Assembly: GCA_005223125.1 (NCBI GenBank)
Contig: NJBH01000019.1
Span: 1-64,000, forward strand
DNA length: 64,000 bases
Direction: 5' to 3'
Origin: Promethearchaeota archaeon Loki_b32
Lineage (GTDB): Archaea > Asgardarchaeota > Lokiarchaeia > Sigyniarchaeales > SOKP01
Every line of letters begins with the position of its first letter. Positions within the stretch are counted from its first letter, which is position 1. Both the position numbers and the translations under genes were made by a program. Shown here in pieces: positions 3,253 to 38,944 of this stretch. Below the pieces are notes generated by a model that searched no databases, was not told the DNA's origin, and worked only from the letters and a program-made list of their open reading frames with translations.

Positions 3253-3933
3253 ATGATAATTATGGAATTGCTTGATAACCTAATTATAAGTTCTCATTCA
3301 GAGGAATATAAAATCGAATTATTTAAGGGTGATTTGACTGATATGAGGCCAAATGAAGAAGTTGATATTTTGGTAGTTTCTGCATTTCCGAATGATTATA
3401 TTCCAGTTCCAGGAACTTTAATAGGTGCTCTTTATGAAAAAGGAATTTCAGTTAGTGAACTTGCAGCCAAAAAAGCTATCGATTTGCGTGAAATGTGCTC
3501 TTGTTGGTTATCAGAAGAAATTATTGCTCAACATCCAGGTATTCAATTTAAAAGAATTTTTTACTTTGAACCTTTATTTCGTGGTAAACCGGTTCAAGTT
3601 GTTGGTGATATCTTTCGTAGTTTAACCCCAATATTAGGAGATGAATTTTCAATTACGAAGGTTGCTATGCCATTGGTTGCATGTGGAAATCAAGGGACCC
3701 CCGTTACTAAAATGCTACCTCCATTACTAGATGCTGCGGTACATTGGATGTCGTTTGGAATTCCATTAAAAAATCTAAAAATTGTTTCTCATTCTACTGC
3801 TCAGGCAATGCAAGTTCAAAGAGTTTTTGCTGAATTGAAGCAAAAATATGAAACCCTTGTTATTGATATAAATAAAGAAAAAGCTCAAAATTACGATATC
3901 TTTATTAGTTATTCCCATGAGACTTCAACCTGA
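3253..3933 (+). pseudogene. Macro-like domain + TIR protein, truncated at the start of the TIR domain
   Basis: Macro-like IELFKGDLT...DILVVSAF...AMPLVACG; ends YDIFISYSH-ETST*, i.e. only the first TIR strand and no rest of the domain. Confidence 0.75.
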
Positions 3934-4036
3934 CAATCTCAAATTATTAAATTTCTAATTTTCCAAACTTTCGTACTTTAAATACCTATAGTATATACAT
4001 ATAGTATAAAAACTTAATTTCTTATTCATATCTATG

Positions 4037-4365
4037 GAGTTGATCTCGAAAAAATCGTGAGAGAGTTAAACTCATTTGTGAAATTCTGCCCTTAATTTTT
4101 ACATGAGTATTTTATTCGTGTAATACAACCATGTAGGATCTCTTGAAACCTATTTTAAAACCTCGATTGCTTGGGCTAAGTGATTGTCTGTTCTTAAATG
4201 TCAAGAGATCCTCCTCCTTTTTATCTTGTTTTTTGGTTTTTAGTGTTTTTTGCCCTCTACACCTCATTAATAGTTACCTTTAGATCGTGATAGAAATTTG
4301 TTGTAGTTTAAATATTGTCATCTAAATAAAATGATAGTTTTAAAAAAACTAAGCCCAAGCATCGG
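4037..4365 (+). ncRNA. Putative structured leader RNA / ncRNA (or ssDNA origin) upstream of the AEP operon
   Basis: Helices 4037-4041/4069-4073, 4100-4105/4130-4135 and a 12-bp perfect 4135-4146/4201-4212; loop 4168-4177 perfectly complementary to 4352-4361; TATA-like TTTAAATA at 3977-3984. Confidence 0.5.
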
Positions 4366-4368
4366 AAA

Positions 4369-5088
4369 ATGAAATTTAAAAACATAATATATTTAGATGG
4401 TTATATTAAGATTTTTTTAGTCAGGACAGGAAGAGAAGAAATAAAAAAATTCTCTCTTGCTCTTGTTAAGCATCTCATAATCCATTATAGTATTGGATTA
4501 GTAAACAATAAGGGAACTCGGATAAAAGAATCAGTTAAGGTTGATCCTAACGATATTGAATTCACTGAAGATTATATTATCGTATCATTTATGCTTGAAG
4601 GATTACGTGATCCTTATGAATGCGAAATTACAATTCATACTCTGACTGTTTTCTTAACAGATGGTTCTCGAATAAGATTAAAAGTTGAAAAAACCACACA
4701 ATTTAGATACATTACATCAGAATTCCCAGAAATTACTCTTAAAAAAGGCTCAACTAATTCAGACATTACCAACCCTTCAAACACCAGGAAAGAAGAAGAC
4801 GAAAAAGAAGAGAACAATATTGAAAAAGATACTTCTGAACATTTTATAAGTTCCTATGAAAAATTTAAGGCAAAAATCCAGGATACAGATCTCATTGAAC
4901 TGATAAGATGTAAGACAAATACCATTGATTTCAGTTTGAAAAATTTTGGTATCTCACTCCTTTGCAAACTTCTTCTTTTGATTAAATATGTAAATGAACT
5001 CGTTGATAATGATTTTCAGAATGATCTTCAGGAGTTTTTAAAAGATAATATTCTAAAAAGTATTGAACAAGAGGAGGCAATGACATAA
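4369..5088 (+). CDS. Hypothetical protein, first gene of the AEP operon
   Basis: 239-aa ORF; beta-rich N-domain, acidic linker, helical C-domain; 1 nt from the next gene. Confidence 0.75.
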   Translation: MKFKNIIYLDGYIKIFLVRTGREEIKKFSLALVKHLIIHYSIGLVNNKGTRIKESVKVDPNDIEFTEDYIIVSFMLEGLRDPYECEITIHTLTVFLTDGSRIRLKVEKTTQFRYITSEFPEITLKKGSTNSDITNPSNTRKEEDEKEENNIEKDTSEHFISSYEKFKAKIQDTDLIELIRCKTNTIDFSLKNFGISLLCKLLLLIKYVNELVDNDFQNDLQEFLKDNILKSIEQEEAMT

Positions 5089-5089
5089 A

Positions 5090-36362: not shown

Positions 36363-37362
36363 TGAAATGGACAAATCCCTTAAATTAATGGTAATTTTAA
36401 TAATAAGCATAGCATCTTTTTCACTAACATTGCTATATGAGTTACCATACAAATTTCAAAAAGAAGGATACATCAGTGTCGGATCAGAAGCAATACAAAA
36501 GATCTCTTTTCCTAATAATTCTTCATTACTTTATATAAACGGTAATACACAATTAGAAGAGTATTCGATCTCTGGAAATGGGACAATTGAGAATCCTTTT
36601 TTAATATCGGACGATCTTTTTGAATCAGTAAACACTACTTATGGTGTATACATCGAAAACACAAATAAATCCCTATTACTATTAAACTGTTCTATATCAG
36701 CCGTTGATTACGGAATAGTACTAAGTAATGTTTCTCATATCATAATTGAAGAGTGCAGCATATATGACCATAATGAATACGGTATCGTCATTTCAGATTC
36801 AAAAAATGCTATAATTACAGATAGTGATATTCATAATAATGATAACGGAATAAAAATTCAAGGATGCACCGACATAATATTGGAAAAAAACTTCATTTCA
36901 CTGAATTACCTACATGGGTATTTTCTGATCAACTCTTCTTTCTGTGATATTATAAATAATCGTTTATTTTCTAATCAATATGGGATAAGAACAGAGTACT
37001 CAAATTATAATAATATAATTGGTAATAATTTAGAATATCACGAAAATGCAATATATTTATCTCATTCAAATTCTAATATTATAATGAACAATAACGGAGC
37101 AGACAATATAAATGAAATCATAGAATACAATTGTCAAAATAATCTATTTGAAAATAATTTCCCTCAACAAGAAATTGATAATACCACAGCTAAGATAGAC
37201 GTTACAATTTTAATTATATATGCTATTTCTTTTTTTTTAATAGCCTATATTATAATGAATGTATACCGTTACAAAAAGTTGTCAAAGTCTTCATACTTAA
37301 AAATAAAATGTGTATATGATATATATAACATTAATAATAAAAATCGAAGAGAAATAAAATGA
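36352..37362 (+). CDS. Right-handed beta-helix (NosD/CASH-like) surface protein
   Basis: LYINGN...GNGTIENPFLI, repeated (Y)GI.....N..I..N motifs, TMs at both ends. Confidence 0.85.
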   Translation: MLSDEMDKSLKLMVILIISIASFSLTLLYELPYKFQKEGYISVGSEAIQKISFPNNSSLLYINGNTQLEEYSISGNGTIENPFLISDDLFESVNTTYGVYIENTNKSLLLLNCSISAVDYGIVLSNVSHIIIEECSIYDHNEYGIVISDSKNAIITDSDIHNNDNGIKIQGCTDIILEKNFISLNYLHGYFLINSSFCDIINNRLFSNQYGIRTEYSNYNNIIGNNLEYHENAIYLSHSNSNIIMNNNGADNINEIIEYNCQNNLFENNFPQQEIDNTTAKIDVTILIIYAISFFLIAYIIMNVYRYKKLSKSSYLKIKCVYDIYNINNKNRREIK

Positions 37363-38156
37363 ATATACTAGACGGTTTTAGTATAGGACCGCGAACGCTG
37401 AACAAATTAGATAGCTTGGGTATTACAACAATTAAAGAACTTGCGCTAACACATGCGTATCAGTTAGTGGGTGCAGGCATCGGAAAGACGACCGTTAAAA
37501 AATTATTAAAAAACATTAGGAAAACTTATATGGATATACAAGGGTTCAATAACCATGATGCTGAAAGATTTGTATTAAACGGTGCTGATTTACAAGATGC
37601 GATAATTTTGAGTAAGATCCAAAAACAATTATCTAAGTATAATGGAGGTTATTATTCTGTGAGGGCTTTATCGAATTTTGATACTCGTCTTGATTTTTAT
37701 ATAGGTGTGTATAATAGTCAAGAAGAGATAGGTATAGGAGAATACGTAGATAAAAAAGATAAAATATATAATAATAGATTGGATTTTTGGTATTCCTTCG
37801 CAGGTATATTTTATAAGCTGGATAAAGGTAAAGTTATTCTACTTTGGTATCACCCCCATTATGGTTCTTTTCCTGTGTTAAAAAAAATACCAGAAGATTT
37901 ATTAGAATTATCTCATCTAAAATATAGTTGTATATTATGTACCAATAGAGCTATCGAATGTATGCCTGAAACTATCAGGAGTAATAACAAATTTGAGGTA
38001 AAAATAGAGTCAGTAGAAACAGGCGTTACTGATTTTGATCAATTGATTAACGAGGTGGGCGCTGAGGTTAAAATCATAAGAAGGGAGATGCTTAATGGAT
38101 ATGATAACGAATTGGATTTTTTAATCAAAGAAGCTTTTATAAGAAAGGATTTATAA
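37359..38156 (+). CDS. Helix-hairpin-helix (RadA-N-like) domain protein
   Basis: IGPRTLNKLDSLGITTIKELA...GIGKTTVKKLL. Confidence 0.65.
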   Translation: MNILDGFSIGPRTLNKLDSLGITTIKELALTHAYQLVGAGIGKTTVKKLLKNIRKTYMDIQGFNNHDAERFVLNGADLQDAIILSKIQKQLSKYNGGYYSVRALSNFDTRLDFYIGVYNSQEEIGIGEYVDKKDKIYNNRLDFWYSFAGIFYKLDKGKVILLWYHPHYGSFPVLKKIPEDLLELSHLKYSCILCTNRAIECMPETIRSNNKFEVKIESVETGVTDFDQLINEVGAEVKIIRREMLNGYDNELDFLIKEAFIRKDL

Positions 38157-38225
38157 TTATGTTATCATGGTAGTTCAAATAGAAAAATAATATTAGAAAT
38201 TAAAGTAAAGATCATATATTTAAAA

Positions 38226-38789
38226 ATGCCGTACTGTAAGAACTGTGGAAAAGAAATATCTGAAATTCAGTTAGAAAATTTTGGTTCATGCCCCGCATGT
38301 ATTCCAACACCATCACCAAGAACTTTACTTGAAAAATATTTTTATGAGAAGACTGGAAAAAAATTCATATTTCCAGATATTCTTATAAAAGAGATTAGTG
38401 AAAACAATTTTGAAAAGCAGTTTTTTAAAGGACGTTCAGGTGAATTGATTGAATTTTATAGAGAACTGTTAACTAGTAACCCTAAGAAAAAAGAAATTTG
38501 GGAGAAACTTTGTTTTGCATTATATATGAAAGGTTACTTTTGGGAAGTGAAAAAAGTAGCAATTGAGGCTTTAGAATTATTTGAAAATGACGTAATTCTT
38601 CTGGGATATCTTGCAGAAGCTTATAAGCTAACAGGTGAAAAAGAGAATGCCTTTGTTATTAAGGTAAATAACAAAATTCCTAAATTTGAGTTTGGTTCGA
38701 ATGTTACAGAAAAAGATTTAAAAAAAGATTTAAAAAAAGTTAAAAAATGGAAAAAAAATACTAGTAATTGTAATTCATCTTTTTTATGA
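38226..38789 (+). CDS. Zinc-ribbon + TPR protein
   Basis: MPYCKNCG...CPAC; TPR-like helices (WEKLCFALYMKG, LGYLAEAYKLTG). Confidence 0.7.
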   Translation: MPYCKNCGKEISEIQLENFGSCPACIPTPSPRTLLEKYFYEKTGKKFIFPDILIKEISENNFEKQFFKGRSGELIEFYRELLTSNPKKKEIWEKLCFALYMKGYFWEVKKVAIEALELFENDVILLGYLAEAYKLTGEKENAFVIKVNNKIPKFEFGSNVTEKDLKKDLKKVKKWKKNTSNCNSSFL

Positions 38790-38803
38790 TAATTATTTTT
38801 TAA

Positions 38804-38944
38804 TTAAACATAACTATCAACATAACAATGTATGATTAATAAAAGATACTTGCATTGTCGGAAGAGTTTTCTTTTTACATAAATGTTCGTCTTTGCGTCT
38901 TCCAATTTTAGAGTAATATAATCATTGATCTTATATTCTTTCAT
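38804..38944 (-). pseudogene. 5' fragment of a Lokiarchaeia-type (often LRR-associated) protein
   Basis: Manual translation MKEYKINDYITLKLEDAKTNIYVKRKLFRQCKYLLLII, then an unrelated tail HCYVDSYV*; similarity ends at ~38830. Confidence 0.65.

Follow-up and report, generated by a model that had tools for sequence, protein, structure and literature searches.

Genes and features of the locus

The window, by which we mean the whole 64-kb stretch of DNA analysed here, belongs to a Lokiarchaeial genome of 4.13 Mb (G000), which was compared with a set of 400 Asgard genomes. In its left part stand an 81-aa gene (470..715, minus strand) with no match in Pfam or PHROG, and the gene of a NYN (LabA-like) nuclease (1275..1787, plus strand; Pfam NYN E 7e-19, PADLOC NYN E 1e-17), of which G000 holds three copies. 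The latter is paired with a nucleotidyltransferase-like gene (1834..2691, minus strand; weak Pfam NTP_transf_2 match, E 0.009), a pairing that recurs in G222, L069, L072 and L080. A Macro-like/TIR defence-type gene follows (3253..3933, plus strand), and then a conserved non-coding leader (3949..4365, plus strand) without an Rfam match, where many same-genus matches start (3948-3950, 74-94% identity).

The core operon behind this leader, on the plus strand, opens with a 239-aa protein (4369..5088) that has no match in Pfam, PHROG or PADLOC. It is followed by a 778-aa AEP-type primase-polymerase-like protein (5090..7426), which is single-copy in G000 and which we propose as replication initiator. 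With a broadened family profile (A5), the 16 best PDB matches were all DNA-primase small-subunit chains (E 1.3e-5 to 0.098), the alignment extending over motifs I, II and the region of motif III; hhalign against the PriS of the host aligned motifs I and II (E 5e-4), and Pfam DNA_primase_S was subthreshold in 13 of 18 members. Invariant residues are D305, D307, S349, G350, G353, H355, D456, R466 and H471. Motifs I (DxD, D305/D307), II (sGxGxH, S349/G350/G353/H355) and III (D456) are present together with the profile similarity, which places the protein in the AEP superfamily. Overlapping the end of its gene is that of a 222-aa RNase H-fold/3'-5' exonuclease-like protein (7417..8085), with invariant D63, E65, E117, H200 and N201 (D..E and HN..C motifs), Atlas scores of 0.88-0.89 to RNase_H_2 clusters and no PDB match. 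A 397-aa protein (8657..9850, plus strand) combines a ParB-like N-terminal domain (hhalign, phrog_21315 E 1e-9) with a C-terminal Cys-rich zinc-ribbon domain. It matches the family of G003, G018, G222 and G253 with an hhalign probability of 98.6% (E 5e-16), and the G003 member exceeds the Pfam ParB_N cut-off (31 bits vs 26.3); the ParB_N fold, typified by a GxxRxxA-type arginine motif, is recognised by this profile-profile match, and a DGRH motif is visible in the sequence. An earlier note on this DNA had named these three proteins as AEP, exonuclease and ParB. The first and the last are borne out, and the exonuclease remains only a lead, drawn from the invariant motifs and the Atlas scores. 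No ParA/MinD/AAA_31-type Pfam match was found among the block proteins at E<=0.01.

Next comes a variable cassette of a wHTH protein, a 5-TM membrane protein and a second wHTH protein (10060..11879, minus strand), with a perfect direct repeat of 41 nt (D6) on either side. Many same-genus genomes carry copies of the repeat unit (10017-10100), frequently where a contig ends, and the variants L070 and L078 diverge from G000 at ~10,020.

From 12351 to 38789 all open reading frames lie on the plus strand, most of them with signal- or TM-like segments, a gene content and layout that agree with the earlier description. The block is dominated by a 6006-aa giant surface protein (13181..31201) with an N-terminal anchor, PKD, DUF2341 and H-type lectin domains and a C-terminal multi-TM region; G000 has just one other open frame that reaches 3,000 aa. 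The six genes behind it (31338..38789, plus strand) encode, according to Pfam and a TM scan, a PLC-like, a 10-TM double-zinc-ribbon, a 262-aa anchored, a NosD/beta-helix, an HhH-like and a zinc-ribbon protein. These rare cargo genes have no PHROG matches. The PLC-like gene occurs in four of the 400 genomes and lies in G018 on a different contig from the cassette; beta-helix proteins are also present in the elements of G003 and G222 described below.

The block is followed by an N-terminal fragment (53 aa; 38807..38965, minus strand) from a multi-copy family of proteins that matches another 17 places in G000, by a 1.77-kb insertion sequence (39001..40774, plus strand) and by nrdJ (40782..43028, minus strand), which forms the conserved right-hand host flank and has 85-89% amino-acid identity in same-genus genomes. 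The insertion sequence is separate from the element: contigs from four runs of two studies join 39000 to 40775, with 8 shared nt that form a T-run. Its IS256/MULE-like transposase (39101-40773; Pfam MULE 29.2 bits, NCBIfam IS256 E 2e-5) starts just beyond the right coordinate of the earlier note. As in known IS256/MULE insertion sequences, there is a single transposase of ~560 aa with the MULE/IS256 signature, a discrete presence or absence and 8 nt at the joint, but no convincing terminal inverted repeats were found, and the G000 copy is interrupted by one in-frame TAG. A 94%-identical copy in G018 (contig C74) has a 562-aa frame with no stop within the match.

Insertion sites, borders and mobility

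Homology to relatives ends at the stop codon of nrdJ. In seven same-genus genomes (G002, G003, G007, G008, G012, G013 and G015) the nrdJ site holds 2-12.5 kb, followed by genes syntenic with contig C52 of G000, and the block genes are absent from this interval in all seven. The empty-site comparison suggested in the earlier note came out in its favour: the block is accessory, inserted DNA and not conserved core.

Two relatives prove insertion directly, against sites that are empty in G000. In G003, an insertion of at least 70 kb lies behind an actin gene, in the intergenic stretch between it and a 480-aa gene; in G000 a gap of 160 nt separates these genes, and a 16-nt direct repeat stands at both junctions. 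The insertion of G222 is complete on one contig (C95) and measures ~106.7 kb. It lies at the 5' end of a protein gene, between genes 627 nt apart in G000, and is accompanied by an imperfect repeat of ~18 nt. In both genomes the giant gene is terminal and outward-pointing, as it is in G000.

Since these relatives reach at least 70 kb and ~107 kb, the size of ~35 kb formerly given for the G000 element, which leaves the contig at its start, is a lower bound. Its borders had been drawn at 3920 and 38830, on two truncated genes, and both have to be moved. The left one is an internal deletion: G000 lacks 411 nt at 3922, so that the Macro-TIR gene ends early and its TIR domain is gone. An intact 347-aa form, which matches TIR defence models (PADLOC), stands at the equivalent place in the metagenome contigs L069 (99.5% and 98.4% identical) and L070, with matching downstream sequence, and the gene is absent from L080. 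It is cargo and not a border; element-family genes, namely NYN and the 81-aa gene, continue to its left up to the contig end. On the right, the element ends at ~39,000 against nrdJ. The 53-aa fragment is probably its decayed terminal gene, a member of the same family being found at the end of the G222 element in equal position and orientation (72% nucleotide identity over 102 nt). The left end of the G000 element lies outside the assembled contig, and a repeat pair and a size cannot be assigned to this copy.

On the element contigs, six recombinase and transposase families were without a match. Tyrosine and serine recombinases (PF00589, PF16795, PF00239) were searched in G003, G012, G018, G107 and G222 (PF00589 also in G000), including the complete G222 contig C95, with profiles that could miss divergent enzymes; no match on these contigs was found either for Cas1 (PF01867), rve (PF00665), DDE_Tnp_1 (PF01609) or the window's own MULE-like protein. 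There is no inverted match between the element ends, and the assembled contigs, as distinct from raw reads, reveal no circular junction, coverage step or excision product. That the block holds no integrase, capsid or conjugation ATPase, as claimed before, is upheld by Pfam and PHROGs, which gave no terminase match either.

Many block genes are without annotation, and Asgard viruses often lack recognisable capsid genes, as the account of HeimV1 indicates (PMC8813620). A provirus with structural genes too divergent to be recognised is nevertheless highly improbable. None of 20 proteins (16 of the block, three of the left flank and the product of the intact L069 TIR gene) had a structural, terminase or portal match in PHROG, none of 143 candidate stretches from IMG/VR encodes an AEP relative, and elements 70-107 kb long in which a single gene takes up as much as 38 kb are unlike known archaeal viruses.

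Recurrence of the module and its link to giant genes

The AEP family is small and patchy. Homologues occur in 23 of the 400 Asgard genomes and in 10 of 53 other genomes of the genus, and the family amounts to 49 clusters in 5.8 billion proteins and 99 representatives in 1.84 billion proteins. Its tree is incongruent with taxonomy (support 100/100). Across 12 genomic contexts, the AEP-like gene (12/12) is accompanied by the exonuclease-like gene in 11, by the 239-aa gene directly upstream in nine, by NYN at most 6 kb upstream of the operon in seven (also in L069, L072 and L080) and by the ParB-like gene in six. The 81-aa gene has homologues in three of the 12, among them the insertions of G003 (C18 part) and G222. 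Where at least 14 kb of sequence lies downstream, an open frame of 3,000-12,800 aa follows the core in five of seven contexts (G000, G003, G012, G107 and G222); in G018 and G203 no giant gene stands within ~14-15 kb downstream of the cassette. The giants are of two nearly unrelated types, that of G000 being homologous to that of G012 over ~2,500 residues. Of the AEP, ParB, giant and PLC genes whose co-occurrence the earlier note had suggested checking, the giant accompanies the AEP gene in these five of seven contexts and the ParB-like gene in half of the 12. The PLC-like gene is unlinked elsewhere, as are the other genes beyond the giant.

According to our analysis, these features define an undescribed element family, whose members bring along primase-like genes for their own replication as well as a giant surface protein, and lack a recognisable integrase. 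The defining module consists of the NYN nuclease, the 239-aa protein, the AEP-type primase-polymerase, the RNase H-fold exonuclease and often the ParB-like zinc-ribbon protein; the second feature is the giant gene of 3,000-12,800 codons, downstream of the module and pointing toward one element end. We posit that the window from ~1 to ~39,000 is probably the right-hand part of such an element, a large plasmid-like mobile element integrated into a Lokiarchaeial chromosome at the variable site behind nrdJ, with its left end off the contig. The Asgard element class built on an AEP that the earlier note had proposed is retained as an integrated accessory type with AEP-like, ParB-like and giant genes and no known integrase, though not with its size and borders.

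Indels the size of whole modules distinguish near-identical variants at 2781/3948, 3922 and ~10,020, so that the island is at least partly composite. The wHTH/membrane trio is flanked by a 41-nt repeat that itself occurs in multiple copies in the genus, the insertion sequence is separate, and the nrdJ site of relatives holds differing genes. Modules that occur apart and with other borders had been named as evidence against a single element, and this is in part what the cassettes without a giant gene (G018, G203) and the unlinked PLC-like and other post-giant genes represent. The nrdJ site might then have gathered independent insertions (defence genes, AEP-exonuclease cassette, giant adhesin, surface genes, insertion sequence), each with its own history and borders. 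We consider this rather unlikely: a single insertion contains both the cassette and a giant gene in each of G003 and G222, with target-derived repeats marking its two outer junctions and the corresponding site in G000 empty, the two are linked in five of seven contexts although giant frames are rare, and the giant keeps its terminal, outward-pointing position in all three genomes.

The genes next to the cassette in relatives are largely of defence type (OLD nuclease, Cas10-like protein, type I R-M, NERD), and a defence island would fit them as well. Together with the TIR gene, the PADLOC match of NYN and a cassette in which no helicase, origin or initiator was identified, they could suggest that NYN, the 239-aa protein, AEP and the exonuclease form a defence or DNA-repair system and not a replicon, with giant genes present in the surrounding defence islands by coincidence. 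This is very unlikely in view of the ParB-like link in six of 12 contexts, the location within repeat-bounded insertions and a phylogeny of the horizontal-transfer type. AEP prim-pols are, moreover, established replicases of plasmids and viruses.

For the plasmid-like element, which remains our preferred reading, we propose that after excision the AEP protein would start, and perhaps extend, DNA synthesis on the element, with the exonuclease proofreading. The ParB-like protein may bind the element and segregate or compact it. The remaining anchored proteins would, like the giant lectin/PKD adhesin, be cargo that reshapes the host surface and may aid cell-to-cell contact. Integration would be carried out by an enzyme of a yet unrecognisable type and would leave a target-derived repeat of 16-20 nt. 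A bolder and distinctly doubtful extension is that "giant-gene elements" of 40-107 kb form a new class in the Lokiarchaeia and move between sites and families without a known integrase or transposase. The module of NYN, 239-aa protein, AEP and exonuclease would itself be the mobility machine, self-synthesising, with a primase-polymerase in place of the PolB and Cas1 of casposons; the 16-20-nt repeats would stem from that reaction, and the giant adhesin would mediate contact for transfer.

Comparison with known mobile elements

The closest parallel is found in the aloposons of Ca. Heimdallarchaeum, described as large integrated elements dominated by genes whose products run to several thousand residues, with a few conserved genes lying upstream of the giant and with insertion sites that differ between genomes (Wu et al., 2022; PMC8813620), and said to encode ParB-like proteins (PMC11529989). 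These traits are shared by the elements studied here. By that description, however, aloposons carry tandem giants (Otus and Ephialtes, 3,000-6,000 aa), use as integration site a tRNA gene that lies downstream of them, and have an upstream module of four consecutive genes with a MinD/ParA ATPase (PMC8813620). By contrast, G000, G003 and G222 have a single giant frame, the sites flank or overlap protein genes, the 64-kb window contains no tRNA gene (ARAGORN), and the core consists of NYN, AEP, exonuclease and ParB-like genes. Measured against these described features, the G000 element is not an aloposon, in keeping with the distinction drawn in the earlier note.

Archaeal integrative plasmids of the pRN1 ORF904 type encode a tyrosine integrase, usually have a helicase fused or adjacent to the prim-pol, and measure 5-40 kb. 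The elements studied here resemble them in an AEP-superfamily protein as likely initiator, an integrated plasmid-like state and short direct repeats. They differ in showing no PF00589 or PF16795 match, in having no helicase fused to the AEP and in sizes of up to ~107 kb. Casposons are self-synthesising transposons that depend on Cas1 and generate target-derived repeats of 14-15 bp. While the element contigs are without Cas1, PolB or terminal inverted repeats between the element ends, they share with casposons a DNA polymerase-type gene aboard and long target-derived repeats, here of 16-20 nt.

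Layout and coding content of the block

The block lies on contig C23, which measures 70.7 kb in an assembly (G000) of 4.13 Mb, 71 contigs and ~30% G+C; the window covers the initial 64 kb of this contig. Between 4.3 and 38.8 kb, all genes listed in the earlier note were recovered: ORFs of 239 aa, 778 aa (5090..7426, plus strand), 222 aa and 397 aa, a trio of minus-strand genes, a giant ORF of 6006 aa (13181..31201, plus strand) and six further plus-strand genes. The 222-aa ORF overlaps the end of the 778-aa ORF, and the trio is enclosed by a perfect 41-nt direct repeat. Most plus-strand genes from 12.6 kb on encode N-terminal anchors or several hydrophobic segments, and the giant protein contains PKD, DUF2341 and H-type lectin domains. 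The G+C content of the giant gene is 37-40% vs 27-31% in its surroundings, and its part at 28,000-31,000 was covered by nearly no contigs of four sequencing runs. The gene of a beta-helix protein is the only one of the block that is not single-copy in the genome. Searches of the block against Pfam, PHROGs, NCBIfam and PADLOC revealed no integrase, capsid, terminase or conjugation ATPase, in agreement with the earlier note, which had recognised no integrase, capsid or conjugation ATPase. No CRISPR array was found in the genome by a simple k-mer scan, which returned only one coding tandem repeat. A few short matches with 89-97% identity came up in the comparison of the window with other genomes.

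Short repeated or conserved sequences occur at several places in the window. A non-coding sequence of 80-170 nt at 3949-4116 recurs with 74-94% identity in many genomes of the same genus, including some with no AEP match. Because many of these matches begin at 3948-3950, it suggests a discrete conserved unit, for example a promoter/leader, a small RNA or a repeat end. The unit that holds the 41-nt direct repeat (10017-10100 and 11839-11879) is present in multiple copies across the genus, several of them at contig ends, with six copies listed for G213 and five for G202; it behaves like a small dispersed repeat that is not private to the trio cassette. The 144 nt at 641-784, which overlap the start of an 81-aa gene, are 98% identical to positions 24196-24339 of contig C65 of the same genome and 97-98% identical in two relatives (G210 and G209), a conservation far above that of the surroundings. 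Rfam gave no match to either conserved sequence or to any other part of window 1-45000 (E<=0.1). Outside the block, two tandem 112-nt units that are 96% identical and 122 nt apart (44160-44393) sit between a flavodoxin gene and the next ORF.

The family of the 778-aa protein comprises 49 clusters among 5.8 billion proteins and 99 representatives at E<=1e-3 among 1.84 billion proteins, nearly all nameless. The six named matches of the cluster search all belong to Asgard MAGs or marine-sediment metagenome records and lack Pfam domains. Taken singly, the family gave weak evidence for the fold of an archaeo-eukaryotic primase (AEP): Pfam DNA_primase_S was seen below the cut-off in 13/18 members and LigD_Prim-Pol in 4/18, hhalign against the host PriS returned a probability of 32% (E 5e-4) with motifs I and II aligned, and the Atlas feature scores were 0.91-0.92. 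Neither the profile of this family (A1) nor the single remote members P0140, P0117 and P0138 matched any PDB sequence, and none of 61 genomes of the order contained LigD_Prim-Pol (PF21686), which was sought as a further AEP reference. At the level of sequence comparison the matter was settled by a broadened profile (A5) that adds distant members of 560-590 aa, because DNA primase small subunits make up all of its 16 best PDB matches (best E 1.3e-5), with the DIDV, FSGxRGxH and HPxSG regions in alignment. For the 222-aa protein, with invariant residues D63, E65, E117, H200 and N201, the family profile (A3) had no match among PDB sequences; Atlas neighbours at 0.88-0.89 provide a lead, but only a lead, to the RNase_H_2/PolB-exonuclease kind. 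The 397-aa family aligns with a family from G003, G018, G222 and G253 at an hhalign probability of 98.6%. The G003 member passes Pfam ParB_N, and both ParB-like families end in a Cys-rich zinc-ribbon domain.

Insertion sites and element borders

The block is flanked on the right by the host gene nrdJ (40782-43028), whose orthologues are 85-89% identical in same-genus genomes and whose upstream side (Pls-like genes, nitrilase) is syntenic in four of them (G002, G011, G012, G015). An empty site downstream of nrdJ, as sought by the earlier note, does exist in relatives: in seven same-genus genomes, genes syntenic with another G000 contig, C52 (from C52:216 on), are reached after 2.1-12.5 kb, and neither block genes nor genes of the left flank of the window lie in between. 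Since the conserved 257-aa gene that borders the site in these relatives has its start within the first 70 nt of C52, it is at least 39 kb away from nrdJ in G000, with an assembly gap between C52 and the window start. We therefore read the block, from this synteny, as inserted, accessory DNA. The nrdJ match itself is split in two inside open frames of 1,095-1,245 aa in G005, G010 and G018, which would fit an intein; no such split is present in G000.

In two relatives, genome comparison proves insertion directly. About 800 nt separate the end of the G003 giant gene from the lokiactin gene, and from actin on the G003 contig is syntenic with contig C38 of G000. In G000 a 480-aa gene follows actin after 160 nt, and its G003 orthologue is located on a different contig (C18), ahead of 11.6 kb of genes that G000 lacks; the insertion therefore measures at least 70 kb. 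An identical 16-nt sequence occurs at both G003 junctions, and the empty G000 site has one related copy. A single 110.9-kb contig of G222 (C95) contains the complete insertion. The stretches C95:3-1525 and C95:108841-109980 match genes at G000 C52:11599-12300 and 12927-14066, which are 627 nt apart; in G222 the ~106.7 kb between the two stretches hold the core module, a giant gene and numerous genes of defence type. At the junctions there is an imperfect ~18-nt repeat (16/18 positions identical) that stems from the 5' end of the flanking gene. The three family members thus occupy three different chromosomal sites, each of which is in the empty state in the other genomes examined.

The window contains the right-hand 39 kb of a larger element. 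The finding of the earlier note is real; its size of ~35 kb and its borders at 3920 and 38830 are wrong. On the left, the truncation is an internal deletion in a cargo gene, with the element running on to the contig end. The metagenome contig L069 is 99.5% identical to the window over 465-3922 and 98.4% over 3922-7998, and exactly at 3922 it has 411 extra nt, shared by contig L070, that complete a 347-aa Macro-like/TIR gene. Contig L080 (AEP 91% identical) has no TIR gene; there, an NYN nuclease and a nucleotidyltransferase gene are directly followed by the leader at 3948, and the same pair is found upstream in L072 (AEP 58% identical) and in G222. The internal deletion, and the course of the element further to the left, follow from these comparisons. 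A TM-protein gene at 3-428 was considered as host flank but does not fix the left end, since the relatives found in G003 and G018 resemble the C18 paralogue more closely and are located in regions without synteny.

On the right, contigs from four runs of two studies join 39000 directly to 40775 with 8 shared nucleotides, which sets the 1,774-nt stretch with a MULE/IS256-like transposase apart as an insertion sequence of its own. A single in-frame TAG near 39272 interrupts the transposase frame, which is otherwise open from 39101 (39101-40773). On contig C74 of G018, a 94%-identical copy lies in an open frame of 562 aa, and the matching part contains no stop; the G000 copy is probably a nonsense mutant. 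No terminal inverted repeats of the insertion sequence were found. Without it, the nrdJ stop codon abuts position 39000, beyond which there is no homology to the nrdJ flanks of relatives, and we place the right end of the element at ~39,000 on this comparison. A 53-aa fragment (38965-38807) represents the N-terminal module of a protein family that matches 17 other places in G000. The G222 element ends with a full member of this family, placed and oriented in the same way. For the fragment, a decayed terminal gene belonging to the element itself is a likelier origin than a host gene interrupted by the insertion.

Around 3920/38830, no pair of repeats stood out from AT-rich matches at chance level, and no terminal inverted repeats were found between element ends. 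Phage_integrase (PF00589), archaeal Phage_integr_3 (PF16795), Resolvase (PF00239), Cas1 (PF01867), rve (PF00665) and DDE_Tnp_1 (PF01609) were searched in G003, G012, G018, G107 and G222, and PF00589 in G000. None of these families matched on any element contig, the complete G222 element included, although a divergent enzyme may escape such profiles. Matches were obtained elsewhere in the same genomes, and control genomes were positive.

The element family and its variable cargo

The AEP gene is patchily distributed, in 23/400 Asgard genomes and 10/53 other genomes of the genus. When the ORFs around it in G000 and 11 further genomes were clustered, the AEP was present in 12/12 contexts, the exonuclease-like protein in 11/12, the 239-aa protein in 9/12, the NYN nuclease in 7/12, ParB-like proteins of both sub-families together in 6/12, and the 81-aa gene (window 470-715) in 3/12. 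Downstream of the module, five genomes have open frames of 3,000-12,800 aa: G000 (6,006 aa), G003 (12,745 aa), G222 (12,775 aa), G107 (at least 11,809 aa) and G012 (at least 3,661 aa). These are 5/7 of the contexts in which the downstream sequence extends for at least 14 kb, the two without such a frame being G018 and G203. In the whole 4.13 Mb of G000 only two frames reach 3,000 aa. The giants belong to two nearly unrelated types, one in G003, G107 and G222 and the other in G000 and G012. In the AEP tree, which was midpoint-rooted for drawing only and whose splits hold on the unrooted tree, the genus is divided over both deep clades, and G107, from another family, is nested in the genus clade with 100/100 support. 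The co-occurrence of AEP, ParB, giant and PLC genes, for which the earlier note suggested a search, is seen in part, for ParB-like and giant genes; the PLC-like gene lies apart from the AEP in G018.

The G003 element encodes a 499-aa stand-alone Cas10-like protein (Csm1_B + Cas10 palm2; C18:149905-151401) next to genes for an XPD-like helicase and an RNase HII-domain protein. In G222, the element encodes an OLD-family nuclease, a 1,192-aa Metallophos/SMC-type ATPase fusion (Mre11/Rad50-like) and a HerA-like ATPase (C95:79930-87149). Genes for the fusion and the HerA-like ATPase are likewise found close to the AEP cassette of G018, and partly to that of G107.

A composite variable island instead of a single element keeps an appreciable part of the probability. 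Indels the size of whole modules separate close variants, the genus holds multiple copies of the 41-nt repeat unit, often at contig ends, the PLC-like gene occurs in 4/400 genomes and in G018 on a contig other than that of the AEP, and the defence cargo varies among relatives (RNase HII-domain protein, XPD-like helicase, Cas10-like protein, OLD nuclease, HerA-like ATPase, Mre11/Rad50-like fusion). Independent modules with different borders, which the earlier note had named as evidence against one element, are in part seen, in G018 and G203 with no giant gene within at least 14 kb of the cassette and in the unlinked PLC-like gene. However, the outer junctions in G003 and G222 enclose everything, core module and giant alike, and we therefore read the indels, the dispersed repeat unit, the unlinked PLC-like gene and the differing cargo as cargo turnover inside one element family.

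Comparison with known systems

According to PMC11529989, no non-viral integrated elements of Asgard archaea other than aloposons, the giant-gene elements of Heimdallarchaeia, had been reported up to 2024, and the supplemental tree of that paper (Supplemental Fig. S2A) includes ParB-like proteins from Lokiarchaeia draft genomes. We found no description of the present family in the literature searched, including passages of PMC9834061, PMC12770985, 10.64898/2026.08.12.739948 and PMC13700489 (the source of a set of 9,712 Asgard spacers), and IMG/VR contained no relatives of the AEP among 143 candidate stretches.

Mobile elements of Asgard archaea are barely known. Through this family, the largest genes of these genomes become linked to mobile DNA. 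It also brings in an AEP enzyme family of 99 representatives that has gone without annotation, and raises the question of how a 107-kb element with target-derived repeats integrates without a recognisable recombinase. Three natural pairs of filled and empty sites are at hand, at the nrdJ flank, at the actin flank and at C52:12300/12927. According to PMC8813620, aloposons are defined by tandem giant genes, integration at tRNA genes and an upstream module with a MinD/ParA ATPase. Compared with this description, none of the three features is present here, which bears out the earlier view that the element is not an aloposon. The family represents a second type of giant-gene element, unrelated to aloposons, in the best-studied Asgard class.
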